A DNA stretch of 64,000 bases from positions 1,760,001-1,824,000 of the forward strand of contig CBDCXR010000004.1 in the NCBI GenBank assembly GCA_965223845.1, read 5' to 3'. The stretch comes from Planctomycetota bacterium (GTDB taxonomy: Bacteria; Planctomycetota; UBA8108; SXIK01). How positions within the stretch are numbered: position 1 is the first letter of the stretch; each line of letters begins with the position of its first letter. Made by a program: the position numbers and the translations under genes. This document shows, one piece after another, positions 20,870 through 51,343 of this stretch. The notes beneath the pieces are model-generated. The model did no database searches, was not told where the DNA came from, and saw only the letters and a list, made by a program, of their open reading frames with translations.

Positions 20870-22174
20870 GTGACCCGCGCTCACCTCGCCCGCGTCCAGC
20901 TAGCTAGACTCACCGCGCTCCTCCGCGCGCTCTGGGAGCGGAATCCGTTCTACACGCGGAAGCTGCGCGCGGCGGGATGGTCGCCTTCGGTGCTCGACGG
21001 CCCGCTCGAGCTCGACTCGCTTCTCGACTCGCTCCCGCTCACGACGAAGGCGGAGCTTCAAGCCGCGCAAGCCGAGCATCCGCCGTTCGGCGACAACCTC
21101 ACGTCGCCGCTCGAGGAGTACGTGCGCGTCCACCAGACCTCGGGATCGACGGGCGAGCCGCTCCGCTGGGTCGACACTCGCGAGAGTTGGGATTGGGTGG
21201 TCCGCTGCTGGAGCGAAGTCCTCCACGGAGCGGCGGTCACCCCCGGTGATCGCGCCCTATTCCCGTTTTCATTCGGTCCGTTTCTCGGGTTCTGGGCTGG
21301 CTTCGAAGCGGCGGAACGACTCGGAGTGTTCGTGATCGCCGGCGGCGGAATGCGATCGACGCAGCGGCTCCGATGCATCGTCGATCAGGATGTGTCCGTC
21401 ATCGCTTGTACGCCGACTTACGCGCTCCATCTGGCGGAAGTCGCGCGCGACGAGGGGATCGAGCTCGCGCAGTCGAGTGTACGCGCGGTAATCGTCGCCG
21501 GTGAGCCGGGCGGTTGCATTCCCGCGACGCGAAGCCGCATCGAGGAATCATGGGGTGCGCGCTGCTTCGATCACTGCGGCATGACGGAGGTCGGACCGTT
21601 TGGTGTCGACGATGGCTCGCGCGGGCAGTGCCTTCGCGTCCTCGAGGATGAGTTCATCGTCGAAGTGCTCGCGCCCGATTCGCAATCGCGCGCCGCAGAC
21701 GGTGAAGGCGAACTCGTCATCACCAATCTCGGTCGAACCGCGAGCCCCGTCGTTCGCTACCGAACGGGCGACTCGGTCCGCTGGGTCACGGGAACCGGTG
21801 ACGACGGCTCGGCGTGCGGCTGGCTCGATGGTGGGATCCGGGGGCGCATCGACGAGATGGTGATTGTGAAGGGAAACAACGTATACCCGTCGGCGATCGA
21901 ATCCGTGCTGCGCGAGTTCGACGACGTCGCCGAGTATCGCGTCCGCGTTCTCCCGAGTGGAGAAATGGCGGAGCTTGTCGTAGAGATCGAGCCTCGAGCG
22001 GGATCTAAGCGGTCGGTTTCGCATCGAGGCGAGCTCGCGGCCGCAGTGGCCGCGAGGCTCGAGACGCGCCTCCTCTTCCGCGCGGAAGTGAAGGAAGTGT
22101 CCCCGGGCTCGCTCCCGAGATTCGAGCTCAAGGGACGGCGCGTCGTCCGTGAATCCTCGGGAGAGAATCAGTAA
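20870..22174 (+). CDS. Phenylacetate-CoA-ligase (PaaK)-family aryl-CoA ligase
   Basis: QTSGSTG P-loop, CTPTYALHL, GEPG, GMTEVG, RYRTGD and GRIDEM..VKGNNVYP. Confidence 0.88.
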   Translation: MTRAHLARVQLARLTALLRALWERNPFYTRKLRAAGWSPSVLDGPLELDSLLDSLPLTTKAELQAAQAEHPPFGDNLTSPLEEYVRVHQTSGSTGEPLRWVDTRESWDWVVRCWSEVLHGAAVTPGDRALFPFSFGPFLGFWAGFEAAERLGVFVIAGGGMRSTQRLRCIVDQDVSVIACTPTYALHLAEVARDEGIELAQSSVRAVIVAGEPGGCIPATRSRIEESWGARCFDHCGMTEVGPFGVDDGSRGQCLRVLEDEFIVEVLAPDSQSRAADGEGELVITNLGRTASPVVRYRTGDSVRWVTGTGDDGSACGWLDGGIRGRIDEMVIVKGNNVYPSAIESVLREFDDVAEYRVRVLPSGEMAELVVEIEPRAGSKRSVSHRGELAAAVAARLETRLLFRAEVKEVSPGSLPRFELKGRRVVRESSGENQ

Positions 22175-22277
22175 GGAACACGCGCCGGAAGTGGATCCAA
22201 CCTCTTCTGCGTGGGATGCAAACTGGACGGTAGACACCCTCTCCGACGGTGATCACCGACGGAGGGGAAGGAGATCG

Positions 22278-24518
22278 ATGGTGATACCTAAAGTGGCTCG
22301 AGCGAAGACCGAAAGTCCGCGGACTCGCAGTGTCGCGATCGGAGCGGTAAGCGTCGTCGCGGCGCTCCTCAGTGTTTCTGCGTTTGCCGGTGACTGGCCC
22401 AACTGGCGAGGCCCCGAGAACAACGGCGCGGCGCGAGAGACGAAGCTGCCCGGTGAATGGGAGCTGCGCTGGAAGGCGCCCTTCGGAGGTCGTTCGACCC
22501 CCGTCGTGCACAACGGGCGCGTCTATGTTCTCAACCGGGCTGGTTCGGGTGTGAACGAGCAGGAGCGGGTCCTTTGCGTCGACGCCAAGAGCGGCGATGT
22601 CCTCTGGGAGCACCGCTTCGGCGTCTACCTCACCGACATCCCTTCGACTCGCATCGGATGGGCGAGTCCGGTCGTCGATCCGGAGACAGGACACGTTTAC
22701 GCGCACGGCGTCCAGAACACGTTCATCTGTCTCGACCGCGACGGCAAAGTCATTTGGCGTCGCCAGCTTCACGAAGAGTACGGGACGATCAACGGGTACG
22801 GTGGTCGCACGCATACTCCCATCATCGACGAAGACCGCGTCGTGATCAGCTTCCTCAACTCGAGCTGGGGACCGCAGGCACCGGGTCGACATCGCTATGT
22901 CGCTTTCGACAAGCGCACCGGCGCCGTGCAGTGGTGGGCGACGCCCGGGGGGCCTCCCCTCGACACGACCTATTCCGTTCCGGTCGTCGCCGTCGTCGGC
23001 GGCGTGCGACAACTCATCGCGGGAAACGCCGATGGCAACGTCTACGGTATGGAGGCGCGCACCGGCCGTCGGCTGTGGACATTCCGCGTGTCGAAGCGAG
23101 GCATCAATGCCTCGCTGGTCGAGTGGAACGGGAAGGTCTTCGTCTCGCACAGCGAGGAGAACATCGACGAAGCTTCGATGGGGCGCGTGATCTGCATCGA
23201 TGCGACCGGACGCGGCGACATCACGAAGACTCACGAAGTGTGGCGCCAGGACGGAATCACGGCCGGCTACGCCTCTCCAGCGATCTCGAATGGACGATGC
23301 TACGTCGCGGACAACTCCGCGAATCTTCACTGCTACGATGCAACGACCGGAACTGAACTCTGGGCGATCAACTTCGGCACGGTTGCCAAGGGGTCGCCCG
23401 TCGTCGCGGACGGGAAGATTTACATCTGCGAAGTCAACGGCAAGTTCCTGATCCTCGATGCGGGCGAAACGAAGAGCAAGATTCTGAGCACCAAGGAGTT
23501 CCACACCGACGACGGCGTCGTCGAAATGTTCGGATCACCGGCGATCGCGGGCGGCCGCATCTACTTCAACACGCGCGACGAGCTCTACTGCTTGGGCGCG
23601 AAGGAATGGGACGGAAGCACCGCCGAAGCCCCCGCCGCGCCGACCGAGGTCGCTTCCGCGGATGCGAAGGCGACTCTGCTTCACGTCGTGCCGGCGGACG
23701 TCGTCCTCGAGCCCGGTCAGTCGATCGCGTTCGGAACGAAGGCGTTCGACGACACCGGCCGCGCCGTCGAGCTCTCGGGCGAGGCGGAGTGGTCGGTCGT
23801 GGGGGTCGAGGGTGAAATCTCCGCAAGCGGGAAGCTGACGGTGTCCGCCGCGAATTCCTTCGGGCAGGGCTTCGTCGTCGCGAAGCTCGGAGATCTCGAG
23901 GGGCGCGCACGGATTCGTACGACGCCACCGATCCCATTCAGCGTGGACTTCTCGGGGGTGGCTGCGACGAAGCCGCCGGCGGGTTGGGTCGGTGCAGGGA
24001 TCAAGTTCGTCGGCGCAGAGTACAAGGGCGAAGCGGTTCTCACAAAGCCGGGGACTCGCTCTAAGTTCATGGACGCCGAGACGTTCTTCGGACTGTCGAC
24101 GTGGCGCAATTACACCATCGAAGCCGATGTGCTCGCGATCGAGCGCAAGCGGAATCTGCCCAACATCGGCGTGATCAACTCCGGATACGAGTTCGTGCTG
24201 ATGGGAAACCATCAGCGCCTCCGCATCGTGTCGTGGGTGCCGCAGCCGCGCATCGAGAAGAAGGTGCGCTTCAAGTGGGACCCGGAAGTTTGGTACCGTA
24301 TGAAGTTTCGTGTCGCGGAGAAGGGGGGAGTCGCGACCCTTCAGGGAAAAGTCTGGAAGCGCGACGATGCCGAGCCGGAAGCGTGGACGGTCGAACTCGA
24401 AGACCCGAACCCGAACGGGGGCGGGGCTCCGGCTCTCCACGGTTACTCGGCGGGGGCGCGAGCCAAGTCGGCGGGCGCTCAGATTTATTACGACAACGTC
24501 AAGGTGACGCGAAATTGA
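22278..24518 (+). CDS. Secreted BamB/PQQ-like beta-propeller protein with Ig-like and C-terminal jelly-roll domains
   Basis: ATG 22278 after GGAGGGGAAGGAG. Signal peptide ends AFA. DWPNWRGP plus repeated D..TG...W and SP.V..G.IY blades. Confidence 0.88.
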   Translation: MVIPKVARAKTESPRTRSVAIGAVSVVAALLSVSAFAGDWPNWRGPENNGAARETKLPGEWELRWKAPFGGRSTPVVHNGRVYVLNRAGSGVNEQERVLCVDAKSGDVLWEHRFGVYLTDIPSTRIGWASPVVDPETGHVYAHGVQNTFICLDRDGKVIWRRQLHEEYGTINGYGGRTHTPIIDEDRVVISFLNSSWGPQAPGRHRYVAFDKRTGAVQWWATPGGPPLDTTYSVPVVAVVGGVRQLIAGNADGNVYGMEARTGRRLWTFRVSKRGINASLVEWNGKVFVSHSEENIDEASMGRVICIDATGRGDITKTHEVWRQDGITAGYASPAISNGRCYVADNSANLHCYDATTGTELWAINFGTVAKGSPVVADGKIYICEVNGKFLILDAGETKSKILSTKEFHTDDGVVEMFGSPAIAGGRIYFNTRDELYCLGAKEWDGSTAEAPAAPTEVASADAKATLLHVVPADVVLEPGQSIAFGTKAFDDTGRAVELSGEAEWSVVGVEGEISASGKLTVSAANSFGQGFVVAKLGDLEGRARIRTTPPIPFSVDFSGVAATKPPAGWVGAGIKFVGAEYKGEAVLTKPGTRSKFMDAETFFGLSTWRNYTIEADVLAIERKRNLPNIGVINSGYEFVLMGNHQRLRIVSWVPQPRIEKKVRFKWDPEVWYRMKFRVAEKGGVATLQGKVWKRDDAEPEAWTVELEDPNPNGGGAPALHGYSAGARAKSAGAQIYYDNVKVTRN

Positions 24519-24595
24519 GTGTCTCGGGAGACTCCCGAACGCTCGCGCGAGCACGGAACGAATTCATCAACCCACGAGAAGAGATCAGCGAAGCA

Positions 24596-26215
24596 ATGAG
24601 GTATCTCTCGAGTCGCACCGTCGGTGGCTGGATCGCCGCCGCTCTGGTTTTCGCGGTGGCCATCGGCTGCCATTCGTCGGCGAGCGTCGAGGATGTCGAC
24701 GCGGCCGAGTCCGCGTCCGAGTCGGCCGGCGATGGCGATGCGGAATCGGCGGCCGTCGAGGTCGCTTCCGATGCCGCTTCTTCGAATTCGGCCGGCGGGA
24801 CCAACGCCGAACCGGAGCCCACCCCTGAACCTGCTCCCGCGCGAACGGACTGGACGATGTGGGGTGGCACACCCGGGCGGAACATGATCAACACCGTCGC
24901 GAAGAACATCCCCGCCGAGTGGGACCTCGAATCGAAGAAGAACATCCTCTGGGCGCAGGCGCTCGGCTCGCAGTCCTACGGGAACACGGTCGTTCACGAC
25001 GGCAGGATCTTCATCGGCACGAACAACGAAGGCCACCGGAACCCGGAAATCAAGGGCGACAAGGGCGTGATCATGTGCTTTCGGGAGAAGGACGGCGAGT
25101 TCCTTTGGCAGATGGTGCACGACAAGCTGGAAGCGGGGCGAGTGAACGACTGGCCGGAGCAGGGGATTTGCTCGTCACCGGTTTGCGAGGACGGCCGGAT
25201 CTACTACGTGAGCAACCGCGCCGAGGTCGTGTGCGCCGACGTCGAGGGGTTCCTCGACGGCGAAAACGATGGACCCTACAAGGACGAAAAGTACACGAGC
25301 AAGATCGACGGAGACGCCATCTGGGTCTTCGACATGATGGACGAGCTCGGAGTCTTTCCTCACAATCTCGCGACCTGCTCTCCGCTCGTCATCGGTGACC
25401 TCATCTTCGTGATCACTTCGAACGGAGTCGAGCGCGACCACATTACGATCCCGAACCCGCGCGCGCCGAGCCTCCTCGCGCTCGATAAGAATACGGGCGA
25501 GCTGAAGTGGGATCGCGCCGATCCCGGCGAGGACATCCTGCACGGGCAGTGGTCGGCACCCTCCTTCATTCGAGCGGGAGGGAAGGACCAGATCATCTTC
25601 CCGGCGGGAGACGGCTGGGTCCGCAGCCACAAACCGGAAGACGGCGAGATCATTTGGGAATTCGATACCAACCCGAAAGACTCCGTGTGGGAGCTCGGAG
25701 GTCGCGGCACCCGCAACAACTTGATCTCGACCGCGGCGTGCGTCGACGGAGTGGTCTACATCGCGGTCGGACAGGATCCCGAGCACGGTGAGGGAATCGG
25801 CCATCTCTACGCGATCGACGCATCGAAGACGGGCGATATCACCGAGTCCGGAAAGCTCTGGCACTACGGGGGCAAGGAGTTCAAGCGAACGATCTCCTCG
25901 TTTGCGGTCGCGGACGGCCTCGTCTACGCGGCGGACTTGAGCGGATTCCTCCACTGCATCGACGCGTCGACCGGCCGTCCGTACTGGATTCACGATACCT
26001 TCGCCGCCGTCTGGGGCTCGCCGACGGTCATCGACGGCAAGGTGTTTCTCGGCGACGAGGACGGCGACGTCGTCGTGCTGCGCCACAGCAAGGACGCGAA
26101 GGAAGTCCTCTTCGAGACGAACATGGAGGACTCCGTCTACACGACACCGATCGTCGCCAACGGAATCCTCTACATCTCGACGCGTACGCACCTGTACGCG
26201 ATCGGAGCGAAGTAG
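24596..26215 (+). CDS. Lipoprotein with BamB/PQQ-like beta-propeller
   Basis: ATG 24596. Lipobox-like VAIGC, an acidic Ala/Ser linker, DWTMWGG..RN and repeated propeller blades. Confidence 0.88.
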   Translation: MRYLSSRTVGGWIAAALVFAVAIGCHSSASVEDVDAAESASESAGDGDAESAAVEVASDAASSNSAGGTNAEPEPTPEPAPARTDWTMWGGTPGRNMINTVAKNIPAEWDLESKKNILWAQALGSQSYGNTVVHDGRIFIGTNNEGHRNPEIKGDKGVIMCFREKDGEFLWQMVHDKLEAGRVNDWPEQGICSSPVCEDGRIYYVSNRAEVVCADVEGFLDGENDGPYKDEKYTSKIDGDAIWVFDMMDELGVFPHNLATCSPLVIGDLIFVITSNGVERDHITIPNPRAPSLLALDKNTGELKWDRADPGEDILHGQWSAPSFIRAGGKDQIIFPAGDGWVRSHKPEDGEIIWEFDTNPKDSVWELGGRGTRNNLISTAACVDGVVYIAVGQDPEHGEGIGHLYAIDASKTGDITESGKLWHYGGKEFKRTISSFAVADGLVYAADLSGFLHCIDASTGRPYWIHDTFAAVWGSPTVIDGKVFLGDEDGDVVVLRHSKDAKEVLFETNMEDSVYTTPIVANGILYISTRTHLYAIGAK

Positions 26216-26275: not shown

Positions 26276-27379
26276 ATGACGAATGACGTTAGAGAACTGA
26301 CGGCTCCCGCGTCCGAGGAGCAGATCCGTACCGCCCGGGAACGCCTCGACGCTTGGGTTGTCGAGGTCGTCGACTGGCACTTCGATCCCGCGACGGGCTG
26401 TCCGTTTTGGCTCGACTACGCATCGAAGCTCGATTGGGATCCGCGAAAAGAGGTGCGCTGCTTCGCCGATCTCAACAAATTCGACGAGTTCGAGGACGAG
26501 TGGCTCCGAGGCGGTCCGGTCCAGCGCTGGGTTCCGAAGGGACTCGAAGGAAAACCCGTCTACGTGTTCGAAACGGGTGGGACGACCGGCGTTCCGAAGT
26601 CACGCATCAACATCGAAGACTTCCGCACCGACTACTCGATGTTCAGTGAGACGCTCTCGGACGACGGCTTCCCGCGCGGCGCCGATTGGCTGTCGCTCGG
26701 GCCGACCGGTCCACGGCGACTTCGCCTCGCGGTCGAGCACCTAGCCCAGGTGCGCGGAGGCATCTGTTTCTGCCTCGACATGGACCCACGCTGGTTCACG
26801 AAGTGTCTCAAGCGAGGCTGGCTCGACGTCGCCGAGGCGTACAAGACTCACGTGATCGACCAAGCTCTCACGCTTCTCAAGGCGCACGAGAACATTCAGT
26901 GTCTCTTCACGACGCCGAAGCTGCTCGAGGCGCTCTGCGAGAAGATCTCGCTCAAGCAGGTCGGCATCAAAGGCATATTCTGCGGCGGCACGCAGATGAC
27001 TCCCCAGTTCCATCGTTTCGCGCGAGAGGAGCTCCTCGAGGGCGTCGAGTTCGTCCCGACCTACGGGAACACGCTCATGGGGCTCGCGTGTCACAAGCCG
27101 TACATTCCGGAGGACGACTACGCGATCATCTACTTCCCACCGCATCCGCGAGCCGTTCTCTCGGTGGTGGATCCCGACGATCCGAAGCGCGACGTCGATG
27201 TGGGCGGAGTGGGCCGCGTGAAGCTCACCACGCTCACCAAGGAGTTTTTCGTACCGGGCTTTCTCGAGCGCGACGAAGCCGAACTCGTCGGACCGATCGC
27301 AAGATACCCCTGGCCGGGAGTGAAGAACGTCCGTCCGTTCTCCCGCTTCCAAACGGCCGTGATCGAGGGAGTTTACTGA
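26276..27379 (+). CDS. Atypical ANL adenylating enzyme, EhpF/LuxE-like
   Basis: WHFDPATGCPFW N-terminus, ETGGTTG.PK P-loop, TTPKLLE, GGT, YGNTL and LERD. Lacks the C-terminal ANL lid, as EhpF does. Confidence 0.75.
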   Translation: MTNDVRELTAPASEEQIRTARERLDAWVVEVVDWHFDPATGCPFWLDYASKLDWDPRKEVRCFADLNKFDEFEDEWLRGGPVQRWVPKGLEGKPVYVFETGGTTGVPKSRINIEDFRTDYSMFSETLSDDGFPRGADWLSLGPTGPRRLRLAVEHLAQVRGGICFCLDMDPRWFTKCLKRGWLDVAEAYKTHVIDQALTLLKAHENIQCLFTTPKLLEALCEKISLKQVGIKGIFCGGTQMTPQFHRFAREELLEGVEFVPTYGNTLMGLACHKPYIPEDDYAIIYFPPHPRAVLSVVDPDDPKRDVDVGGVGRVKLTTLTKEFFVPGFLERDEAELVGPIARYPWPGVKNVRPFSRFQTAVIEGVY

Positions 27380-27382
27380 GCG

Positions 27383-28801
27383 ATGCTTCACATTCCGATC
27401 CTCCGCGGCGGCCGGCCCTACGAGAGTATCGACAAGACCGAAGTGCGGGACTACCGAACGGGCGAGCCCGTCGCGATGCTCAGCGTCGCGAACGGTGGGC
27501 TCATTTCGCGTGACCTCCGCGACCAGAGCATCGCGACGAGCCCACTTCGCCACGTGTCGACGACCGAGCTGATCTCCCGCACGCAGGAAGCGGCGGAGCA
27601 TTTCCTTCACGGTGAGCTTCCGCTCGGGGACTCCACGCAGAGCTACGACGACTACATCGAGCAGCTCTCGTGGACGACGGGATTGCCGAAGACTCTCTGC
27701 CGAGCGAATGCGGAAAAGATCTACCATGTGATGGCGAAGATCGACGAGGTGCTCGGAGGGCTCACGCGAGGCCTTGACCTCTCGATCCTCGATCGCGGCT
27801 TCGGCGAGCAGAACGGACGGACTCTCTGCTTCATGCAGCAGGCGCGCACGCTCGGTGCGGTTCTTCCGAGCAACTCGCCCGGAGTTCATTCGCTGTGGGT
27901 GCCGGCGATCGCTCTCAAGGCGTGCCTCTGCCTGAAGCCGGGGCGGGAGGAGCCGTGGTCTCCGTACCGAGTGCTCCAGGCCTTCCTCAAGGCGGGGATC
28001 CCGGGCGATGCGTGCGGTTTCTATCCGACGACGCACGACGGTGCGCGCGAGATTCTCATGCGTTCCGGTCGCGCGATGGTGTTCGGCGACGCGTCGACGA
28101 CCCGACAGTGGGAAAACAATCCCGCCGTCCAGGTTCACGGACCTGGTTTCAGCAAGGTGATCTTCGGGCCGGATACCGCCGCGAGTTGGCGCGAGCATCT
28201 CGATGTCCTCGCCGAGTCGGTGGCCCTCAACGGCGGACGCTCCTGCATCAATGCCTCGGCGATCTGGACGCCTTCGCACGGACGCGAGCTCGCCGCTGCG
28301 CTCGCCGAACGCCTGGCGTCGATCGCGCCGCGTCCGGCAGACGATCCCGCCGCGGAGCTCCCGGCCTTCGTGAACCCGAAGTTCGCGGAGATGATGGACG
28401 CCGCGATCACGGCTGGTCTCGGAACGCCGGGCGCCGAGGACTTGTCGCTCGCTCACCGGCCGGAGCGCCTCGTTCGACAAGACGGCTGCACGTATCTACT
28501 CCCAACGGTGATTTGGTGCCGCGATCGCGAGCATCCACTGGCGGGGAAGGAGTTTCTCTTCCCGTACGTCGCGGTCGTCGAGTGTCCACCGGAGGACATG
28601 CTCGAAAGCATCGGCCCCACTCTCGTCGCGACCGTCATCACGGATGATCCCGCGCTGAAGGCCGCTCTCATGACTTGCCCGCACGTCGACCGCCTCAACA
28701 TCGGCCCTCAGCCGACCTGCCGCATCAGCTGGGATCAACCGCACGAAGGGAATCTCTTCGAGCACCTCTACCGCCAGCGCGCGTTCCAGTACGTGGCGTA
28801 G
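27383..28801 (+). CDS. ALDH-fold acyl reductase, EhpG/LuxC-like
   Basis: LPSNSPG, LKPG, NGGRSCINAS (catalytic Cys) and EFLFP. HGPGFSK replaces the ELGGK general-base motif. Confidence 0.75.
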   Translation: MLHIPILRGGRPYESIDKTEVRDYRTGEPVAMLSVANGGLISRDLRDQSIATSPLRHVSTTELISRTQEAAEHFLHGELPLGDSTQSYDDYIEQLSWTTGLPKTLCRANAEKIYHVMAKIDEVLGGLTRGLDLSILDRGFGEQNGRTLCFMQQARTLGAVLPSNSPGVHSLWVPAIALKACLCLKPGREEPWSPYRVLQAFLKAGIPGDACGFYPTTHDGAREILMRSGRAMVFGDASTTRQWENNPAVQVHGPGFSKVIFGPDTAASWREHLDVLAESVALNGGRSCINASAIWTPSHGRELAAALAERLASIAPRPADDPAAELPAFVNPKFAEMMDAAITAGLGTPGAEDLSLAHRPERLVRQDGCTYLLPTVIWCRDREHPLAGKEFLFPYVAVVECPPEDMLESIGPTLVATVITDDPALKAALMTCPHVDRLNIGPQPTCRISWDQPHEGNLFEHLYRQRAFQYVA

Positions 28802-28825: not shown

Positions 28826-29989
28826 ATGTCGAAATCGATTCTCGATCGCCTCCACTTCCAGTACGCACCGAGGACGCGGATCCTCTTCGGGAACGGAACG
28901 ATCGACGAGCTCGGTCCGACGGCAGTACTCGAAGGCGGGACGAGCGTCCTCCTCGTCACCGACCCGGGAATCGAACGCGCCGGCCACGTCGCCCGCGCCG
29001 TCGCCAGCCTCGACGCGGCGGGGGTTCGCACGCGCGTCTTCAGCGGAGTCGCGGAGAATCCGACCTCGAATCACGTCGCGGAAGGCGTCCAGTTCGCGCA
29101 GCGAGAGGCGTTCGACATGATCGTCGGACTCGGTGGCGGAAGCGCGATGGATTGCGCGAAGGGGATCAACTTCATCCACTCGTGCGGCGGCACGATGCGC
29201 GATTACCTCGGGGTCGGCAAGGCGACCGGACCGATGCTGCCGATGATCGCCGTGCCGACCACCGCCGGAACGGGGAGCGAGTCCCAGTCCTTCGCCCTGA
29301 TCTCCGATCCGGACACGCACCAGAAGATGGCCTGCGGCGACTCACGGGCGGCATTCCGAGTCGCTATCCTCGATCCTCTGCTGACGTTGTCGCAACCGAA
29401 CGCGGTCACGGCAGCGACCGGGATCGACGCACTAGCGCACGCGGTCGAGAGCTTCGTGACGACGAAGCGCACCCCGTTCTCAGAGGTGTTTTCGCGAGAA
29501 GCCTTCCGGTTGATCGCGGGGAGCCTCGAGCGAGTCCTCGAAGCACCCGATGACGTGGACGCCCGCGGCCGGATGCAGCTCGGCGCGACGTTCGCCGGCA
29601 TCGGAATCGAAAACTCGATGCTCGGGGCAACCCACTCGGCCGCGAATCCCGTCACGGCGCATTACGGCACCGTGCACGGCGTTGCGATCGGAATTCTTCT
29701 TCCTCACGTCGTCCGCTACAACGCGCCCGACGTCGGCGAACGCTACGCCGAGCTCGCGGCGCTCGCCGGGGTTCAAGTCGACGAGCTCGGGGCCGGCGCG
29801 GCGCTCGCGGGGCTTCTCGAGCGCATCCACGGGAGGACCGGACTTTCAGCGCGACTCGGTGATTGCGGGGTGACGGCGGACGCCGTCGCCGCGCTCGCCG
29901 CGGAGGCCGCGACGCAGTGGACGGCGCAGTTCAACCCGCGTCCGATCTCGAGTCCCGATTTCGAGGAGATCTATCGATGCGCTCTGTGA
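28826..29989 (+). CDS. Iron-containing (group III) alcohol dehydrogenase
   Basis: ENP, GLGGGSAMD.AK, PTTAGTGSE, and metal ligands in DALAH, THSAAN and HG. Confidence 0.92.
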   Translation: MSKSILDRLHFQYAPRTRILFGNGTIDELGPTAVLEGGTSVLLVTDPGIERAGHVARAVASLDAAGVRTRVFSGVAENPTSNHVAEGVQFAQREAFDMIVGLGGGSAMDCAKGINFIHSCGGTMRDYLGVGKATGPMLPMIAVPTTAGTGSESQSFALISDPDTHQKMACGDSRAAFRVAILDPLLTLSQPNAVTAATGIDALAHAVESFVTTKRTPFSEVFSREAFRLIAGSLERVLEAPDDVDARGRMQLGATFAGIGIENSMLGATHSAANPVTAHYGTVHGVAIGILLPHVVRYNAPDVGERYAELAALAGVQVDELGAGAALAGLLERIHGRTGLSARLGDCGVTADAVAALAAEAATQWTAQFNPRPISSPDFEEIYRCAL

Positions 29990-32830: not shown

Positions 32831-33270
32831 CTCACGAGTTTCGCCACGAGCGGCGCGTCGAGTTCGCCGACACCGACTGCGCCGGTATCATTCACTTTTC
32901 CCGCTTCGCTTGCTACGCGGAAGAAGCAGAGCACGCATTTCTCCGCTCGCTCGGACTGAGCGTCCAGATGAAACACGAAGGACACACGATCGGCTTTCCG
33001 CGCCTCGCAAGTCGCTTTGAGTACTCGCGGCCGATCCGCTTCGAGGACGTCGTCGACATCCGGCTCCGGGTCGTGCGACTCGGTGCGAGCACCGTCACGT
33101 ATCAATTCCTTTTCGAGAAGGACGGCGACGAGGTCGCTCGTGGGGAGTTTACCGTCATCGCGTGTCGTGTGTATCCTGAGGGACGCATCGAGAAGACCGC
33201 GCTCCCGAACGCGTTCACGGATCTCGTTGAAATCGCGCCCGAGGGGGCACTCGATTTTCGCGAACGATGA
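32827..33270 (+). CDS. Hotdog-fold acyl-CoA thioesterase (4-hydroxybenzoyl-CoA thioesterase/YbgC family)
   Basis: RVEFADTDCAGIIHF..F..Y.E motif. ATGA overlap with the GT4 stop. Confidence 0.88.
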   Translation: MTHEFRHERRVEFADTDCAGIIHFSRFACYAEEAEHAFLRSLGLSVQMKHEGHTIGFPRLASRFEYSRPIRFEDVVDIRLRVVRLGASTVTYQFLFEKDGDEVARGEFTVIACRVYPEGRIEKTALPNAFTDLVEIAPEGALDFRER

Positions 33271-40802: not shown

Positions 40803-41687
40803 TCAGAGACTCAAGTGACCGAGCGCGAGGAGCCCGTAGTACGTGTACTCGCAGTCGAGCGTGTCTTCGGCCCAGTGGCCGTAGAAGCTCCCGCGACTCG
40901 TCCAAAGGGTATCGATGAACTCGAGGCAATCGTCGCGAATCGAGTCGAGAGGACACTCGAGCGCAGCGAGCGCGTGGAGCGCCGTCGCCGTCGACAAGAG
41001 GTCGGGCACCGGCGTGCGCGGCCCGGCGCAGAATCCGCCGGCGCGACGGCAGCTACGGACGAGCCACTCGCCCGCCGAGGCGGGACAATCGATCCCGAGA
41101 GTCCGCGCGACGGTCACCGCGGCCGCCGTCGCGGGCGTCGCGCCCTCGGCGACGCGGGCGTCGTTCGCATAGCCTCCGTCGCTCTGCCGGCGTGCCGACA
41201 GAAACTCAGCGATCCGGGACGACGGGATTTCGCTCCCGAGGTCCTGGAGCGCACCGACGGCGAGAAAGACTCCGTAGACGTTCCCCATGTCCGCTCCGCG
41301 TTCGGTCGCGTAACCGCCGTCTGGGGTTCGGTGTCGGTCGATCTCGGCCTCGAAAGCGGCGCGGGCCGCGGTCGAAACCTCGAGCCCGCGGCTCGCCGTC
41401 GCTCGCACCGCAGAGGACAGATGGACGAGATCGAGGCTCGCGATCGTCTCCGGATCGGTGAAGGAGCACAGATACTCTCGCGTATCCGGAGGAAACTCCG
41501 TTCTCAGCGCGAGAAGGCATTCCGTGCCGAACAGCGTGTAATAGAGATCGGCCGCGCCGTCGCGATCACGAAACCCACCGTTCGGTGCGAGCTGGTCGAG
41601 AACGAACGCAGCGACGAGCTCCGTCGACTCACGCAGAAGCTGCGGCGCCAGTCTCGCGACCTGCAGCATTTCGAGTCTCATGCTCAC
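40803..41687 (-). CDS. Prenyltransferase/squalene-oxidase repeat (alpha/alpha barrel) protein
   Basis: Repeats NGGF..RDG.ADLYYT, DGGY, QSDGGY, AGGF...PDLLST and GSFYG...DCEYTYY. No DxDD. Confidence 0.82.
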   Translation of the reverse strand: MSMRLEMLQVARLAPQLLRESTELVAAFVLDQLAPNGGFRDRDGAADLYYTLFGTECLLALRTEFPPDTREYLCSFTDPETIASLDLVHLSSAVRATASRGLEVSTAARAAFEAEIDRHRTPDGGYATERGADMGNVYGVFLAVGALQDLGSEIPSSRIAEFLSARRQSDGGYANDARVAEGATPATAAAVTVARTLGIDCPASAGEWLVRSCRRAGGFCAGPRTPVPDLLSTATALHALAALECPLDSIRDDCLEFIDTLWTSRGSFYGHWAEDTLDCEYTYYGLLALGHLSL

Positions 41688-44349: not shown

Positions 44350-44721
44350 TCAGGTCTCCGCACTCGCGGGTCGCGCGGAAGGCTCGCGAAGAAGCGTCTC
44401 GACGATCGTCTTCGGATCCTCTTCGCGCATGTTGCAGATCTCGACCGGAGGTGCAGACTCCCCCTCAGCCAGCGGCGCTCCCGCCGCCTTGAAGAGCCAC
44501 TTCACCGACCGGGGAAAACAGGCCGCGATGCGAACCTCGGCGTTCGGTTCCGCCAATCGCGCGAGAGACGGGTCGCGCCGAGCCGAGAGTTCACACAGGT
44601 CGGCGACCGCCTCGAACGGTTCGCCCGAGCGGGCGAGCTCCGCGAGAACCGCATCCTTTACGCCAGGCGAGATGATCTTCGCGTAGGCGCAATGGCAGTA
44701 GAGGATCCGAGTCGGTGCCAT
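44350..44721 (-). CDS. Small Cys protein resembling the N-terminal Fe-S domain of HdrA
   Basis: YCHC...DLC...AACFPR...NMRE matches the HdrA-N pattern VCHC...MC...AACSPR...NIRE. Confidence 0.65.
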   Translation of the reverse strand: MAPTRILYCHCAYAKIISPGVKDAVLAELARSGEPFEAVADLCELSARRDPSLARLAEPNAEVRIAACFPRSVKWLFKAAGAPLAEGESAPPVEICNMREEDPKTIVETLLREPSARPASAET

Positions 44722-44931: not shown

Positions 44932-46029
44932 TCATTCCTCCATGCGGTGCGTCGGCTGGGGCTCGCCCGGACGGAAGCTCTCGAGATCGTCGACCCGGAC
45001 GTCGGGGACCGAGATCTCCTCGAGGACCGACGCGACGGCTTCGCGGAGGACCGCGGGATCGGCCTCGGCGCGCAGATTGATGATCAGCTCGCCCGAACGA
45101 ATCGGGGTAGAGAGGCGCATTCCCGTCTCGGGGACGAATTCATTGCCGACGAGCTGACTCACCGCGAGCTCGCCGAGCACGGTACCGCTCGAGAGCGTGA
45201 GTTTCAGGTGCGCGATGTCGCGGACGTCACCCCGCAGGCGCTCCTGCAGCGACGCCATGATCCCGTCGACGAACGCGTTGCCGTCGAACTCTTCGGCGTG
45301 GCTCACGGTCGCGGTCGCGTTCAGCCACCCGAGGAGAGCCTCGCCCTCGCCGTAGATCGCGTAGTCGAGGTCCATCGCTTTCCCGCCCGGGAGATCCTCC
45401 GCGAGGATCCGATCGAGCCACGCGTCGAGGCCCTCGCCGCTCCGCGCCGAGACCTGAATCACGTCCGCACGCGCAAAGCGTTCCGCGAGAGCGCTCTCGA
45501 GCGCACGTCTCTCGTCCGGCGAGAGCAGATCGATCTTGTTGATCGCGATGAGGTGCGCCTCCTCGAGCTGCTTCTCGTAGATGTAGACGACTTTGCGCGA
45601 GAATTGCCGTCCGGATTCGAGCCCGAGTACCCGCATCGCTCGGCGCGGATCGACGAGCACGGTGAGCGGGGCGATCCGATAGCGCTCACCGTACATTCGC
45701 CGTAGCGGGTAACTGACCGAGGCGACGAGATCGGTGCAACTACCGACCGGCTCAGCGAGGAATACGTCGGGGCGATTCGCCGCGCTGAGATTGTCCGCCG
45801 CCGCGAGGAGGGAGCTGAACCGGCAGCAGAAACAACCGCCCGCGATCTCTTCAACGGCGTAGCCGCGCGCGCGGAGGAACCGCGTATCGACGAGGCCCTC
45901 TCCCTGATCGTTCGTGATCAATCCCACGGAGAGTCCCCGGGCGACGATCCGCTTCGCGAGCTCGGCGAGGGCCGTCGATTTACCCGCGCCGAGGAAGCCG
46001 CCGACCATGATGTAGTGTGCTCGATCCAA
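44932..46029 (-). CDS. CobW/COG0523-family G3E metallochaperone GTPase
   Basis: GGFLGAGKST, ITND.G, GGCFCC, EPVG and INKID. Confidence 0.9.
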   Translation of the reverse strand: MDRAHYIMVGGFLGAGKSTALAELAKRIVARGLSVGLITNDQGEGLVDTRFLRARGYAVEEIAGGCFCCRFSSLLAAADNLSAANRPDVFLAEPVGSCTDLVASVSYPLRRMYGERYRIAPLTVLVDPRRAMRVLGLESGRQFSRKVVYIYEKQLEEAHLIAINKIDLLSPDERRALESALAERFARADVIQVSARSGEGLDAWLDRILAEDLPGGKAMDLDYAIYGEGEALLGWLNATATVSHAEEFDGNAFVDGIMASLQERLRGDVRDIAHLKLTLSSGTVLGELAVSQLVGNEFVPETGMRLSTPIRSGELIINLRAEADPAVLREAVASVLEEISVPDVRVDDLESFRPGEPQPTHRMEE

Positions 46030-46059
46030 GGGATCCTCGAGTTTTCTCGTATCGGTGGG

Positions 46060-46566: not shown

Positions 46567-46580
46567 CGGTGTGACTTTTC

Positions 46581-47786
46581 TCAGCGCTCGCCGGTTGGAA
46601 GGCAGTGATCGGCGCGCGGGGCCGATCGGGGTCGAGCGCGCAGCTCGGTCACGGCCGCGATCACCGAGTCGGCGGCTCGCTCGATCTCGTCGGGCGTCGT
46701 CGTTCGTCCGAGACCGAATCGCAGCGACCCCTCCGCGGCCGCGCTCGAGCCGTAGAGCATCTGGAGGACGTAGGAGCCGGTTTGCTTCGCCGACGAACAC
46801 GCGGCGCCGGACGAGACCGCGACGCTGGGGATGGCGCGGAGGAGGTCCTCGCTGTGAACGCCGAATCCGACGCTCAGATTGTTCGGGAGACGATCCGTCA
46901 TCGTTCCGTGGAGGGTGACACCCTCGAGCCCCGTGCGCAGACGGTGCCAGAGGCGGTCCCGCAGTTTGGAGATGCGTTCGCTGTCGCGGTCTCGCTCCTC
47001 GGCGACGATCGCGGCCGCGCAGCCGAAGCCCACGATCCCCGGAACGTTGAGTGTTCCCGACCGCAGACCGCGCTCGTGTCCACCCCCGTCGATTTGCGCG
47101 CGCAGTCGCACCCGCGGCCGACGCCGGCGCACATAGAGGGCGCCGACGCCTTTCGGCCCGTACATCTTATGCGCGGAAAGCGAGAGGAGATCGACGCCGA
47201 GCTCGTCGACCCCGAGCGGAAGATGCGCTCCGGCCTGGGCGGCGTCCGAATGAAGGAGCGTGCCGTGCCGACGACAAATCGCCGAGATCTCTCGGAGCGG
47301 ATGCACCGTGCCGATCTCGTTGTTCGCGTACATGAGGGAAACGAGCGCAGTCTCGTCGCGAATCGCATTCTCGAGTCGATCGAGGTCGAGCGTTCCGTCC
47401 GCGTCGACTCCGAGATAGGTCACCTCGAACCCGTCTTCCTCGAGGCGTGCGCAGGTATCGAGAACCGCTTTGTGCTCGGTCCCACAGGTGACCAGGTGTC
47501 GTCCGCGCGCACCGGTCGCGGTCATGACGCCTTTGAGCGCGAGGTTGTTCGATTCCGTCGCGCCCGAGGTGAATACGATCTCGCGGGGATCCGCGGCGAG
47601 CAGATCGGCGACTTCCGCGCGTGCGCGCTCGACGTGGCGAGCCGCGGCCCGTCCGGCCGCGTGCTGTGCGCTCGCGGCGTTTCCGAACGTCTCCGCGAAC
47701 ATCGGGAGCATCGCTTCGACGACGCGGGGATCGCACGGCGTCGTCGCGTGGTGATCGAGATAAATCGGTGAAAATTCAGCGGCCAA
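46581..47786 (-). CDS. iscS: Cysteine desulfurase, IscS/NifS group I
   Basis: IYLDHHATTP, FTSGATESNN, EHKAV, ANNEIG, DAAQ, SAHKMYGPKG, RSGTLN and SSGAACSS. TTG start is estimated. Confidence 0.88.
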   Translation of the reverse strand: MAAEFSPIYLDHHATTPCDPRVVEAMLPMFAETFGNAASAQHAAGRAAARHVERARAEVADLLAADPREIVFTSGATESNNLALKGVMTATGARGRHLVTCGTEHKAVLDTCARLEEDGFEVTYLGVDADGTLDLDRLENAIRDETALVSLMYANNEIGTVHPLREISAICRRHGTLLHSDAAQAGAHLPLGVDELGVDLLSLSAHKMYGPKGVGALYVRRRRPRVRLRAQIDGGGHERGLRSGTLNVPGIVGFGCAAAIVAEERDRDSERISKLRDRLWHRLRTGLEGVTLHGTMTDRLPNNLSVGFGVHSEDLLRAIPSVAVSSGAACSSAKQTGSYVLQMLYGSSAAAEGSLRFGLGRTTTPDEIERAADSVIAAVTELRARPRSAPRADHCLPTGER

Positions 47787-48208: not shown

Positions 48209-49513
48209 ATGACGACGCCCCTCTCCGAAGAAGATACCGAAGTCGGTAGTTACTTCATCTCGAACTACCCGCCGTTCAGCTTTTGGAAGCCGGAGCACGT
48301 AGATTCCGCCCGGGCGGCCATCGATCGATCGCCCGCGCCGGACGTACCGCTCGGACTCTATCTCCACATCCCGTTTTGCCGAAAACGGTGCAAGTTCTGC
48401 TACTTTCGGGTCTACACCGAAAAGAACAGCCGTGAAGTGGAGCGCTATCTAGCCGCACTCGTTCGCGAGATCGCTCTATACAGCGAGCGGCCCGTCCTCG
48501 AGGGGCGACCGTTTCGATTCGCGTATTTCGGCGGTGGAACGCCGTCGTTCCTCAGCGAGAAGCAGCTCCTCTCCCTGGTCGATCGACTGCGCGCGTCGAT
48601 CGATTGGGACGACGCCGAGGAGGTCACGTTCGAGTGCGAGCCGGGAACGCTCACCGAACGAAAGCTGCGGGCGATCCGCGAGCTGGGAGTGACGCGCCTC
48701 AGTCTCGGCATCGAGAATTTCGACGACGCCATTCTCGAAGAGAACGGACGGGCACACCGCAGTCCGGAAGTGTTTCGCGCGTACGAGTGGGCTCGGGCGA
48801 TCGGATTCCCACAGATCAACGTCGATCTCATCGCCGGGATGGTCGGTGAAACGACAGAGAACTGGCACGAGTGTGTGCGGAAGACGATCGAGCTCGCGCC
48901 CGATTCGGTGACGATCTACCAGCTCGAGCTTCCGTTCAACGCGGTGTACTCGAGCGAGCTCCGAACGGGCGGCGAAGTCTCCGTCGCGACGTGGGGGCGG
49001 AAGCGGGAGTGGGTGGCCTACGCGTTCGACGCGCTGCGCGAAGCCGGCTATTCCGTCTCGAGCGCTTACACCATGGTGAAGGACCCCGACGCCAAGTTCG
49101 TCTATCGCGATGCGCTCTGGCGCGGCGCCGACATGCTCGGGACGGGGGTCGCTTCGTTTTCGCACGTCGCCGGCGTGCATTTTCAGAATCTTGACACCGA
49201 CACGCAGTACCTGGAGTCGCTCGAGAGCGGCGAGCTTCCGATCGGACGCGCGCTTCCCGTCACGGATCGCCAACGCATGATTCGCGAATTGATCCTCCAG
49301 CTCAAGCTCGGCTCGGTGGACCCGGCGTACTTTGAGCGCAAATTCGGGTTAAGGATCACGCGAGAGTTCGGTTCGGTCTGGGACGACCTTCGTGACCACG
49401 GGTATCTCGAGTCCGGCGACCCGCCCACTTTGACGCGAGACGGGCTTTTGCGCGTCGACGCGTTCCTCCCGCGATTCTTCGAGCCGGAGCACCAAGGCGC
49501 TCGGTATACGTAA
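48209..49513 (+). CDS. HemN-like radical SAM enzyme (class C methyltransferase-like)
   Basis: LYLHIPFCRKRCKFCYF (CxxxCxxC), FGGGTPS, ECEP, RLSLG and NVDLIAG. N-terminus has SNYPP rather than the HemN PRYTSYP. Confidence 0.88.
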   Translation: MTTPLSEEDTEVGSYFISNYPPFSFWKPEHVDSARAAIDRSPAPDVPLGLYLHIPFCRKRCKFCYFRVYTEKNSREVERYLAALVREIALYSERPVLEGRPFRFAYFGGGTPSFLSEKQLLSLVDRLRASIDWDDAEEVTFECEPGTLTERKLRAIRELGVTRLSLGIENFDDAILEENGRAHRSPEVFRAYEWARAIGFPQINVDLIAGMVGETTENWHECVRKTIELAPDSVTIYQLELPFNAVYSSELRTGGEVSVATWGRKREWVAYAFDALREAGYSVSSAYTMVKDPDAKFVYRDALWRGADMLGTGVASFSHVAGVHFQNLDTDTQYLESLESGELPIGRALPVTDRQRMIRELILQLKLGSVDPAYFERKFGLRITREFGSVWDDLRDHGYLESGDPPTLTRDGLLRVDAFLPRFFEPEHQGARYT

Positions 49514-49526
49514 GTCGAATTCGGCC

Positions 49527-50084
49527 ATGACACCGACCGTTCAGCTGACGACTCTCCTCGATTCTTTCCCGGACGGTCCTTTCCGTTCGAGCGATCTAGA
49601 GCTCATCTCACCAGCCGAGGTGCCGGAGCCCTACGCGCGGCTCCTCGTCCACAACCACCACATGACGGTGACGCTCGAAGATTTCCACCGAGCGACGCTT
49701 TCTCTCCAGGTGCTTGGCGAGAAGCGGACGGACGACAGCTACACGCGGCGGCTCACGCTGAGCGTGGGCTCTCCTGAAGAAGACCGACGGGTCGTCCTCG
49801 CAGGAATCATGCGCATCGCGCTCGATCGCTGCAGCGACCGAGTACGGCACGAGATCCTCTCCGGGGCGACACCCCTCGGGCGAATCCTAATCTCGAATCG
49901 CGTTCTTCGCCGAGTCGAGTCCAACGCGTATCTTCGCGTGAAGCTGAGCGCGCCCATCCGGACGATGTTCGCGCTCGCCGATGACACCAAGGGGTTCGCC
50001 TACGGACGCATCGCGCGCATCTTCTGCGACGGTGAGCAGGCGATCGAGCTGCTCGAGATCGTTCCGCCGGAGCCGGAAGAATGA
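49527..50084 (+). CDS. Chorismate-lyase (UbiC/UTRA-fold)-like protein
   Basis: LLVH..HMT.TLE, YTRR..L, EILSGATPLGRIL, YGR and final LLEI resemble the chorismate pyruvate-lyase pattern. Confidence 0.6.
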   Translation: MTPTVQLTTLLDSFPDGPFRSSDLELISPAEVPEPYARLLVHNHHMTVTLEDFHRATLSLQVLGEKRTDDSYTRRLTLSVGSPEEDRRVVLAGIMRIALDRCSDRVRHEILSGATPLGRILISNRVLRRVESNAYLRVKLSAPIRTMFALADDTKGFAYGRIARIFCDGEQAIELLEIVPPEPEE

Positions 50085-51343
50085 ACGATCGAGTCCCGGT
50101 AGTGGTGATCGGCGGTGGGCCGGCGGGCTCGACGGTCGCGGCGCTTCTCGCGGACGCGGGAGTCGGCGTGCGGCTCTTAGAGCGTGCGACGATGCCGCGC
50201 TTTCACATCGGAGAGTCTCTCATCACGGAAACCTACTGGACGTTCGAGCGCCTCGGGGTTCTCGATCGCTTGAAGGCCTCGGACTTCCCGAAGAAGTACA
50301 GCGTTCAGTTCATCTCCGAGAGCGGGCGTGCCTCTCGTCCGTTTTATTTCTACGAGCGGGATCCGCACGAGAGCTCGATGACTTGGCAGGTCGACCGCGC
50401 GGAGTTCGACCAGATGCTCCTTCAGAACGCGGCCGCGAAGGGGGCAGATGTCCGTACCGGCTACGGAGTTCGCCGCGTCCGCTTCGACGGCGAGCGCGCC
50501 GTGGGGGTCGAAGGGACGGACTCCGCGGGCGAACCATTCGCACTCGACGCGGATGTCGTGGTCGACGCGACGGGCCTTCACGCGCTCCTCGCTCGCCAAG
50601 AAAACCTCCTCCAGCGGGACCCGCATCTCGTCAAGGCCGCCGTATTCACGCACTTCGAAGGGGCGAGGCGAGACGAGGGAATCGACGAGGGCGCGACGCT
50701 CATCATCCACACGAAGGGAAACCGCGGCTGGTTTTGGTACATCCCGCTCAGTCGGGATCGCGTGAGCGTCGGAGTGGTCGGATCATCGCGGGAACTCATG
50801 CAGGGAGGCGTGAAACCGGACGAGATCCTCGCGCGCGAGATCGAAGCCTGCGCCGCGGTCAAGGATCGCGTTGCCGGCGCGCGACGCGTCAGCGACGTCC
50901 ATGTCACGAGCGACTATACCTACCGGGCGACGCGCTGTGCGGGCGACGGTTACGTGCTCGTCGGCGACGCGTTCGGGTTTCTCGATCCGATCTACTCCTC
51001 CGGCGTCCTGCTCGCGCTGAAATCGGGAGAGCTCGCGGCGGATACGATCGCGGCAGCCCTCGCCGACGGCGACATGTCGGCCGAACGTCTCAGCGCGATG
51101 GGCGCTCCGATCGCGACGGGAATGGAAGCGTTTCGGAAGATGGTCTACGCGTTCTACACACCGGGGTTCAGCTTCGCGAATTTCGTCGCGCAGCATCCGG
51201 AACATCGCGATGCCCTCGTTCGCGTCCTCATCGGAGACGTGTTCAAGGGTGACACCGATGAGATCTTTCAGGCGATGGGCGCGATGTGCGAGCTTCCCGA
51301 GGAAGTTCCTCTCGGCGGGGAAGGACCCGAGCACCGGGCGTGA
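50081..51343 (+). CDS. FAD-dependent oxidoreductase, flavin-dependent halogenase-like
   Basis: GGGPAG, PRFHIGESL, FPKK (Lys at the halogenase catalytic position), GWFWYIP (WxWxIP) and GDA.GFLDPIYSSG. Confidence 0.8.
   Translation: MNDRVPVVVIGGGPAGSTVAALLADAGVGVRLLERATMPRFHIGESLITETYWTFERLGVLDRLKASDFPKKYSVQFISESGRASRPFYFYERDPHESSMTWQVDRAEFDQMLLQNAAAKGADVRTGYGVRRVRFDGERAVGVEGTDSAGEPFALDADVVVDATGLHALLARQENLLQRDPHLVKAAVFTHFEGARRDEGIDEGATLIIHTKGNRGWFWYIPLSRDRVSVGVVGSSRELMQGGVKPDEILAREIEACAAVKDRVAGARRVSDVHVTSDYTYRATRCAGDGYVLVGDAFGFLDPIYSSGVLLALKSGELAADTIAAALADGDMSAERLSAMGAPIATGMEAFRKMVYAFYTPGFSFANFVAQHPEHRDALVRVLIGDVFKGDTDEIFQAMGAMCELPEEVPLGGEGPEHRA

Follow-up and report, generated by a model that had tools for sequence, protein, structure and literature searches.

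A modular gene system with a class II terpene cyclase, a predicted acid-reducing module and secreted propellers in Planctomycetota

The gene cluster and its members

This report concerns a 64,000-nucleotide stretch of the genome of a Planctomycetota bacterium (assembly GCA_965223845.1, contig CBDCXR010000004.1, positions 1,760,001 to 1,824,000 of the forward strand), hereafter the window, and a cluster of genes within it that encodes a class II terpene cyclase, enzymes of predicted aromatic acid metabolism, an ABC exporter and three secreted propeller proteins. A preliminary description of this DNA had proposed about 23 genes in three transcription units with ATGA joins, and 23 genes were confirmed at 20870-51343: unit 1 (+ strand, 20870-37523) holds 11 genes, unit 2 (- strand, 47786-38059) nine and unit 3 (+ strand, 48209-51343) three. 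Three ATGA overlaps were found (gt4/4HBT, lolD/ftsX and ubiC/halogenase), and the remaining gaps range from -53 to 210 nt. As detailed below, all units very probably belong to one conserved modular system, and not to one linear pathway. Its parts are module A (aromatic and acid-reducing), module B (cyclase, toroid protein and polyprenyl synthase) and a core C (propeller, glycosyltransferase and transporter); a further operon, A', is found in related genomes. The system is widespread in Planctomycetes and Verrucomicrobia and is uncharacterised, and no description of the whole architecture together with its propeller link was found in the open-access literature. Family labels in the following list were checked with Pfam, NCBIfam, PDB sequences and the ESM Atlas.

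20870..22174, + strand: PaaK-like aryl-CoA ligase, module A; TIGR02155 E 6.5e-59 (below cut-off); adjoins module A or C genes in 11 loci
22278..24518, + strand: secreted PQQ (pyrroloquinoline quinone)-like propeller 1, module A; PF13360; signal-like N-terminus; member of the dispersed propeller family, E 1e-79
24596..26215, + strand: propeller 2, secreted (lipoprotein-like), module A; PF13360; order pqq1-pqq2-(DUF3311-SSS)-ehpF in relatives
26276..27379, + strand: EhpF-like adenylating enzyme, module A; PDB EhpF E 2e-39; 31/131 genomes at E<1e-100
27383..28801, + strand: EhpG/aldehyde dehydrogenase (ALDH)-like acyl reductase, module A; PF00171 E 4e-9; directly after ehpF in most relatives
28826..29989, + strand: iron-containing alcohol dehydrogenase (Fe-ADH), module A; PF00465, PF25137
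29977..31443, + strand: secreted propeller 3, core C; PF13360; adjoins gt4/lolD/ftsX in A and A' genomes alike
31478..32830, + strand: GT4 glycosyltransferase with N-terminal CGSC motif, core C; PF00534; CxxC in at least 80% of 12 sequences; 39/131 genomes
32827..33270, + strand: 4HBT-type thioesterase, module A; PF13279
33313..34032, + strand: LolD-like ABC ATPase, core C; TIGR02211 E 1.5e-76 (below cut-off)
34029..37523, + strand: 1164-aa double-FtsX permease (MacB/LolCDE superfamily), core C; PF02687 twice; 40/131 genomes
38059..39873, - strand: 'SHC-like' (squalene-hopene cyclase-like) class II terpene cyclase with DADD motif, module B; PF13243, PF13249; PDADDT invariant in 46 sequences
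40016..40765, - strand: carbon-nitrogen hydrolase; PF00795; 0/149 related loci
40803..41681, - strand: alpha/alpha-toroid protein, module B; AlphaFold pLDDT 97.6; nearest to protein prenyltransferase beta subunits
41629..43353, - strand: DUF116 (Cys-rich)-trans-polyprenyl diphosphate synthase fusion, module B; PF01976, PF00348
43384..44271, - strand: dicluster ferredoxin-domain protein, module B; Fer4; 27/131 genomes, all within B
44350..44721, - strand: small Cys protein, HdrA-N-like, module B; kept in 47/80 loci; ferredoxin fusions in some relatives
44932..46029, - strand: CobW/G3E GTPase, module B accessory; PF02492
46060..46566, - strand: GcvH-like carrier protein, module B accessory; PF01597; lipoyl-position Lys invariant in 43 sequences
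46581..47786, - strand: IscS-like cysteine desulfurase, module B accessory; NF010611 E 5e-144 (below cut-off)
48209..49513, + strand: HemN-like radical SAM (S-adenosylmethionine) enzyme (putative C-methyltransferase), module A; TIGR00538 E 2e-51; same 31 genomes as ehpF
49527..50084, + strand: chorismate lyase (UbiC/Rv2949c-like), module A; ESM Atlas 0.95; 25/131 genomes, all in A
50081..51343, + strand: predicted flavin-dependent halogenase of PltA/CndH/ChlB4 type, module A; PDB matches; K72 and WxWxIP kept in 12 sequences

The labels of the earlier gene inventory stood, and the two genes that it had left unnamed are those for the GcvH-like protein and the carbon-nitrogen hydrolase; the latter is probably a local insert, since it was found in none of the 149 related loci. 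EhpF was the only solved relative of the 26276-27379 protein in the PDB sequence search, and the protein that follows it is presumably an EhpG counterpart. The C-terminal domain of propeller 1 had no Pfam match; neither Pfam nor NCBIfam gave a match to the small Cys protein, in which we take one motif to be HdrA-N-like. The UbiA (PF01040) and squalene-synthase (PF00494) families are absent from the window, as had been stated, and four PF01040 and two PF00494 matches lie elsewhere in the genome. No Rfam match was found in the window, and no RNA record was listed as carrying 41629-51343. Some members are displaced in this genome and lie outside the window: a radical SAM gene is located ~1 Mb away (C4:716607-717908, 73% identity), and of the usual members of the ehpF-side unit, the SSS symporter and DUF3311 genes are found at about C4:6318929-6320615 and an EamA-like gene at about C4:1725244-1725723.

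Distribution of the modules across genomes

Module carriage was scored in one sample throughout, comprising 131 Planctomycetota genomes (completeness 92% or higher, the host excepted) and searched with a separate marker for each gene. A limited number of candidates was scored per genome, kin are not independent, and many genomes are fragmented metagenome-assembled genomes (MAGs). Module A, called by an EhpF-like protein at E<1e-100, is present in 31 of the 131; the HemN-like protein has an identical distribution, and 25 of these genomes also carry the chorismate lyase. A further 11 EhpF matches were too weak (best E 1e-35 to 1e-51) to be counted in module A, and the one locus inspected among them (L120) was without cluster neighbours. 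Module B is likewise present in 31 genomes, with the cyclase in 29, the synthase in 29 and the ferredoxin in 27 of the 31. Core C, marked by GT4 (39 genomes) and FtsX (40), occurs in 41: it is found in all 39 genomes with A or B, and in only two of the 92 others. Modules A and B coincide in 23 genomes (odds ratio 33, kinship uncorrected), with eight genomes carrying A without B and eight carrying B without A.

The A' operon encodes a propeller, an NHL protein, a membrane polyferredoxin (PF12801), a second propeller, NuoEF-like and NfnA/GltD-like flavoproteins, and a third propeller. Its marker was found in 13 genomes, namely all eight B-only genomes, both core-only genomes and three A genomes; it was not found in any of the 90 that are core-negative. 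The core is always accompanied by A or A', and B, which is carried by 23 of the 31 A genomes and by eight of the ten A'-only genomes, is optional. Some of the A-only genomes are nearly complete (G138, 100%; G120, 99%; G131, one contig). Searches without a positive control, in five A-only genomes each, found neither the radical SAM gene nor the toroid gene.

Members of different modules are also physically mixed. Among the 149 related loci, A+B genes occur together in ten, A'+B in seven, A+C in 12, B+C in two, A'+C in four and A'+B+C in one. The ten loci with intermixed A and B genes come from nine other genomes, and gene order differs among them, many orders being seen. Outside the 131-genome sample, GT4 was found in five of five synthase carriers, strong EhpF in four of the five, and A' in the fifth. 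The earlier claim that the three units form one conserved system is therefore sustained by the shared set of EhpF- and HemN-positive genomes and by the intermixed loci. The linear route from 4-hydroxybenzoate and a polyprenyl chain proposed with it fails as a general rule, as eight of 31 B genomes are without A and carry A', and eight of 31 A genomes are without B. The units are thus separable in part of the genomes, with the GT4/FtsX core kept in every such genome.

Proteins of modules B and A

The cyclase is a protein of 604 aa with two domains (PF13249 and PF13243) in which DxDD is kept as PDADDT. Against the SHC model TIGR01507 it scores 122 bits, below the cut-off of 431, and a canonical SHC scoring 681 bits is encoded separately in the genome (L190:4588-7617, - strand) beside an HpnG-like gene, in agreement with the earlier statement that the cyclase is not the hopanoid SHC. 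Hopanoid (hpn) clusters are similar in having this cyclase fold, a radical SAM partner, a glycosyltransferase and a transporter nearby, but differ in the cyclase score and in the location of the true SHC and HpnG-like gene; furthermore, a head-to-tail synthase is found here instead of HpnCD, and the hpn exporter is of the RND (resistance-nodulation-division) type, in contrast to the FtsX exporter at this locus. In sequence the cyclase agrees with a published clade, termed 'SHC-like' or 'unknown function', and shares its features (550-700 aa, two domains, DxDD, and hosts of the PVC (Planctomycetes-Verrucomicrobia-Chlamydiae) and FCB (Fibrobacteres-Chlorobi-Bacteroidetes) groups or Acidobacteriota with a polyprenyl synthase nearby). 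A polyprenyl synthase adjoining the SHC-like cyclase is also noted in the PMC7306690 supplement. Both PMC12414744 and PMC7306690 describe the substrate of the clade as an unanswered question, with consequences for cyclase evolution and lipid biomarkers; their accessible portions make no mention of the toroid protein, A or A', the GT4/FtsX core or propellers.

In its AlphaFold model, the toroid protein is nearer to the beta subunit of protein geranylgeranyltransferase I (GGTase-I; 1n4p_B, Z 26.6, rmsd 2.7, 266 aligned) than to MstE (Z 19.2, rmsd 3.3, 265 aligned) or SHC, with GGTase and farnesyltransferase (FTase) beta subunits ranked higher (Z 23-27) than MstE. By sequence register the protein lacks the D-x-C...H motif, which we take to provide the Zn ligands of protein prenyltransferase beta subunits; D227-x-L229 and D276-x-E278-Y279 are the invariant residues at this register, and there is no invariant Cys. 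The modelled fold suggests a prenyltransferase acting on a non-thiol acceptor, though the protein could instead be a second cyclase. A complex prediction for the DUF116-synthase with the toroid protein scored 0.00, which gives no verdict and was counted neither way. The cyanobacterial merosterol pathway, which reportedly uses UbiA-type prenylation and the MstE cyclase, likewise combines chorismate-derived hydroxybenzoate, a polyprenyl synthase and a class II cyclase in one region. It differs in that the window cyclase has two domains while MstE is monodomain, in the absence of UbiA from the cluster, in the closer relationship of the monodomain toroid protein to GGTase-I beta, and in that the aromatic module is dispensable in eight genomes here.

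The DUF116-synthase fusion has six Cys and both DDxxD motifs invariant in 57 sequences; DUF116 is described as a predicted metal-binding domain in the part of PMC5898192 available. At least 579 confirmed loci of this fusion were found among 593 pattern matches. The 80 loci that were kept derive mainly from Verrucomicrobiota and Planctomycetota, with some from Acidobacteriota, Armatimonadota, Hydrogenedentes and Lentisphaeria. In these 80 loci, many of which are incomplete, the radical SAM gene was found in 57 (mostly between ferredoxin and synthase), the ferredoxin and toroid genes in 51 each, the HdrA-N-like gene in 47, and the cyclase, CobW and GcvH-like genes in 34 each. Several A' genomes have a B12-type radical SAM gene in place of the usual module B one, for example at L101:6317-7882 (+ strand; 521 aa, 845 relatives at E<=1e-20). 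The PDB sequence search gave nothing useful for this protein, which we take to resemble archaeal GDGT (glycerol dialkyl glycerol tetraether) ring synthases; the GcvH-like and CobW genes look accessory because they were not seen in the A' loci that carry it. The available part of PMC11868695 only reports GrsA homologues in Phycisphaerae.

In module A, the flavoprotein encoded at 50081..51343 matches carrier-type halogenases in the PDB with E 1e-63 to 1e-41, the closest being PltA, CndH and ChlB4. It contains GGGPAG and WFWYIP motifs and a lysine, K72, that aligns to the FPKK/FQRK Lys of solved halogenases; GxGxxG, Lys and WxWxIP presumably have the catalytic roles that we ascribe to them in halogenases. 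The chorismate-lyase-like protein (49527-50084) had no Pfam match and nothing useful was found in the PDB sequence search, while the Atlas clusters it at 0.93-0.95 with groups in which PF04345 (17-19% of members) or PF01947 (11-13%) occurs. Its MTxTxE, R74, PLG, YGR and E177 are invariant in 11 sequences and are assumed by us to be active-site residues. The pairing of the EhpF-like adenylase (E 2e-39) with a downstream ALDH-like gene resembles the two-component acid reduction by EhpF and EhpG in the griseoluteic acid pathway, with the differences that the window is without phenazine genes and that the partners here are the chorismate lyase, halogenase, Fe-ADH, SSS importer and periplasmic propellers. 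Second copies of ehpF are found in G001, G004 and G008; in the first two, the main operon has no ehpG, and this gene is instead located with the second ehpF copy at a separate site. In G085, an MbnH/MauG-like di-heme protein (L082:6710-9829, + strand) lies directly 3' of ehpF. Planctomycetes are known to produce halogenated or 4-hydroxybenzoate-containing molecules, for which the accessible parts of the sources (bioRxiv 10.1101/723874, PMC11848864) make no link to this cluster. The baaAB genes for 3,5-dibromo-p-anisic acid are alike in placing a chorismate lyase beside a flavin halogenase in a planctomycete; BaaB, ~44% similar to Bmp5, differs from the PltA/CndH-type enzyme of the window, a separation made on the description available in part from bioRxiv 10.1101/723874.

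Secreted propellers and the predicted function

The preliminary description correctly noted three exported propellers in the window and missed their link to a dispersed family. At E<=1e-70 this family has 26 members in the host genome, with 25 encoded outside the window; these are mostly stand-alone proteins with signal peptides, a WPxWRGP motif and an 8-bladed model, and are annotated as BamB- or PQQ-like. A profile built from 20 out-of-cluster propellers (E<=1e-70, with at most 14 candidates scored per genome) matched 39 of the 41 core-positive genomes (not G047 and G119) and none of the 90 core-negative genomes, and gave at least seven matches in 24 of the 41. Total PF13360 matches follow the same division, with medians of 19 in core-positive and four in core-negative genomes and at least 12 matches in 37/41 and 5/90, respectively. 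This excess holds in three genome-size bins and in 8/9 mixed families. Family propellers adjoin cluster genes in several genomes (18 open reading frames (ORFs) in 40 loci), and 47 longer relatives include fusions to domains that we take, from their Pfam accessions, to be sulfatase, DUF1080, ThuA-like, acetylesterase and glycosidase domains. The nearest folds are YxaL (Z 37.2), BamB (Z 34.5), Rv3035 (Z 34.5), tetrathionate hydrolase (Z 33.4) and PQQ alcohol dehydrogenases (Z 30.1); the best match to BamB in the PDB sequence search was E 2e-26. Against TIGR04528 ('acido-empty-quinoprotein'), family propellers score about 45 bits with a cut-off of 650. PqqC (TIGR02111) was not found in five of five carriers, in a search for which control genomes gave no match either.

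Several individual propeller loci were also observed. In G131, which is without module B, seven family propellers lie in a row directly 3' of ftsX (L095:5915-17182). The host genome encodes a lactonase-propeller fusion (L184:4485-7049, - strand), a single case that would fit a lactone-forming sugar dehydrogenase, and a 1717-aa protein (C4:424260-429434, - strand), encoded beside an ECF (extracytoplasmic function)-sigma-like gene, that ends in a copy of propeller 2 (61% identity) and has an N-terminus that we take to be anti-sigma Ser/Thr kinase-like. At a further locus, a family propeller is fused to a squalene-cyclase-type toroid fragment (PF13243; L179:4255-6900, + strand), with a like pairing in P0151.

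As to function, the chances appear about even that the system serves to supply the propellers with an isoprenoid-based cofactor or ligand, which it would synthesise, glycosylate and export, with A or A' providing reducing power. Cofactor supply is favoured because the subset of makers is nested in the set of users and because one locus is matched to dozens of dispersed paralogs. In PQQ-type cofactor systems, makers are nested in users and one locus has dispersed paralogous clients; with PQQ and mycofactocin, as proposed here, one biosynthetic locus serves many clients and non-makers salvage, the difference being isoprenoid instead of peptide chemistry. A redox role is suggested by the fact that the core never occurs without one of two partners, an electron wire or a module for ATP-driven acid reduction, and the redox cofactor that was the second guess of the preliminary description fits better than a secondary metabolite.

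In this scheme, the DUF116-synthase of module B would make a polyprenyl diphosphate, the GGTase-beta-fold protein would transfer the polyprenyl chain to a non-thiol acceptor, and the SHC-like cyclase would then cyclise the prenyl product. The radical SAM enzyme and ferredoxin would modify this product, with IscS, CobW and the GcvH-like protein giving Fe-S or sulfur support. In the core, GT4 would glycosylate the product and LolD/FtsX would move the lipid-like molecule to the periplasm, where propellers, most likely carbohydrate-acting, would use it as cofactor or ligand; genomes without B may salvage it. A and A' would be interchangeable redox arms, with A' forming a wire from NAD(P)H through the membrane polyferredoxin to a propeller. 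Module A would make a halogenated, methylated 4-hydroxybenzoate and reduce it to the aldehyde or alcohol using ATP and NAD(P)H, with the SSS importer returning the acid for another round; the module may in addition be the source of an aromatic head group. Taken to its full extent, the proposal is that PVC bacteria have a cyclised isoprenoid redox cofactor, possibly glycosylated, halo-aromatic or sulfur-bearing, which the SHC-like cyclase would make and the MacB/Lol-type transporter would export. Makers and salvagers would exchange it, and dozens of periplasmic 'BamB-like' propellers, in truth carbohydrate-active oxidoreductases, would take it up, with electrons from a membrane Fe-S wire or a halogenated benzaldehyde/benzoate shuttle. 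This complete version is tentative and somewhat doubtful.

A number of observations weigh against cofactor supply. All of the chemistry is deduced from family membership, the sampled genomes share ancestry and include many fragmented MAGs, and the co-distribution would also be compatible with non-catalytic propellers that bind or carry a lipid. Nine genomes have one or two profile matches that may be cluster copies alone, because in-cluster propellers 1 and 5 pass the threshold, and the abundant PF13360 matches of five core-negative genomes are of a different kind. Conserved polar residues are scarce in the propeller family (R25, R342, S350, R402 and C329), and non-enzymes are among its nearest modelled folds. 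The neighbours of the dispersed propellers in this genome are heterogeneous, with no common partner among the 95/140 ORFs run against Pfam. Finally, ubiC lies inside the cyclase operon, after cyc-pps, in two genomes (G113 and G148), which favours a direct link from A to B.

That last arrangement would be expected if A and B worked in sequence as a single linear pathway whose product is a cyclised prenyl-aromatic meroterpenoid, either a metabolite or a lipid. Its 4-hydroxybenzoate-derived head would be halogenated and methylated, the toroid protein would prenylate it, and cyclisation, glycosylation and export would follow. We consider such a route unlikely. It draws on the 23 genomes with both modules and their kinship-uncorrected odds ratio, on the intermixed A/B loci, and on the prenyltransferase fold of the toroid protein and the intact halogenase motifs, but it leaves the propeller co-distribution unexplained and must contend with eight B genomes in which these searches found no ehpF, hemN or ubiC and whose A' holds no aromatic biosynthesis, as well as with eight A genomes lacking cyc, pps and fdx. 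Since eight of the 31 B genomes are without A, a prenyl-aromatic product cannot be general, although one may be formed in A+B organisms.

It is also rather improbable that the product is a structural envelope glycolipid, a polycyclic isoprenoid glycoside acting as hopanoid surrogate, with the propellers as non-catalytic lipid carriers or as anchors that tether fused hydrolases. Ten core-positive genomes without B are hard to square with a bulk lipid, the genome has its own SHC, and the constant pairing of the core with redox module A or A' likewise weighs against this reading. BamB and YxaL are among the nearest propeller folds and the varied hydrolase fusions fit an anchoring module, yet most family propellers stand alone with signal peptides. 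LolD/FtsX exporters generally handle lipid-anchored cargo, which would suit a glycolipid, as would the novel polycyclic triterpene suggested in the available part of PMC7306690. The notion that unrelated pathways are neighbours here by chance and co-occur through shared lifestyle or ancestry is largely refuted and highly improbable, for despite the A-only and B-only genomes and the patchiness of B among close relatives (9/40 at E<1e-100), modules are intermixed in differing orders in many of the 149 loci and the nesting of A, B and A' in the core is complete.

If cofactor or ligand supply is correct, it would provide a purpose for the orphan 'SHC-like' terpene cyclases, which the co-distribution links to the planctomycete 'bamB' paralogs, and core-positive, B-negative genomes would be natural auxotroph candidates. 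Should the propellers prove to be glycan enzymes that require a cofactor, major polysaccharide degraders would contain a large enzyme family under a wrong annotation. The available part of a study of Planctopirus limnophila lists 29 bamB paralogs and assigns them no role (PMC10632474). Its essential-gene figure, in the portion accessible, has no P. limnophila entries for COG0142, 0635, 1541, 1454, 0644, 0535 or 0523, cluster carriage not being shown; it does include one COG1657 gene (Plim_0306) and a COG0577/1136 pair, which could not be mapped to the system (PMC10632474). The V. spinosum supplements gave no matches.

Genes flanking the cluster were considered for membership. A FadB-like 3-hydroxyacyl-CoA dehydrogenase/hydratase gene and a thiolase gene lie immediately 5' of paaK on the same strand (17090-20704, +), and both were rejected, being found in 0/149 related loci; the downstream dehydratase, 53129-54325 and methyltransferase genes were rejected on the same count. 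The region at 53129-61717 is probably one of sialic-acid or glycan use and holds a 398-aa protein without Pfam match, presumably GH88-like, a PmtA-like methyltransferase, a GlcNAc 2-epimerase and a NanA-like aldolase, together with a long fusion of BNR, sulfatase and sialate O-acetylesterase (54691-59544). A fused E1 alpha/beta 2-oxoacid dehydrogenase is encoded at 9232-11697 (- strand), upstream of DegT aminotransferase and PhyH dioxygenase genes, and secreted proteins with CotH kinase or lamin-tail domains are encoded at both ends of the window (1178-5611 and 61719-63905, both - strand).

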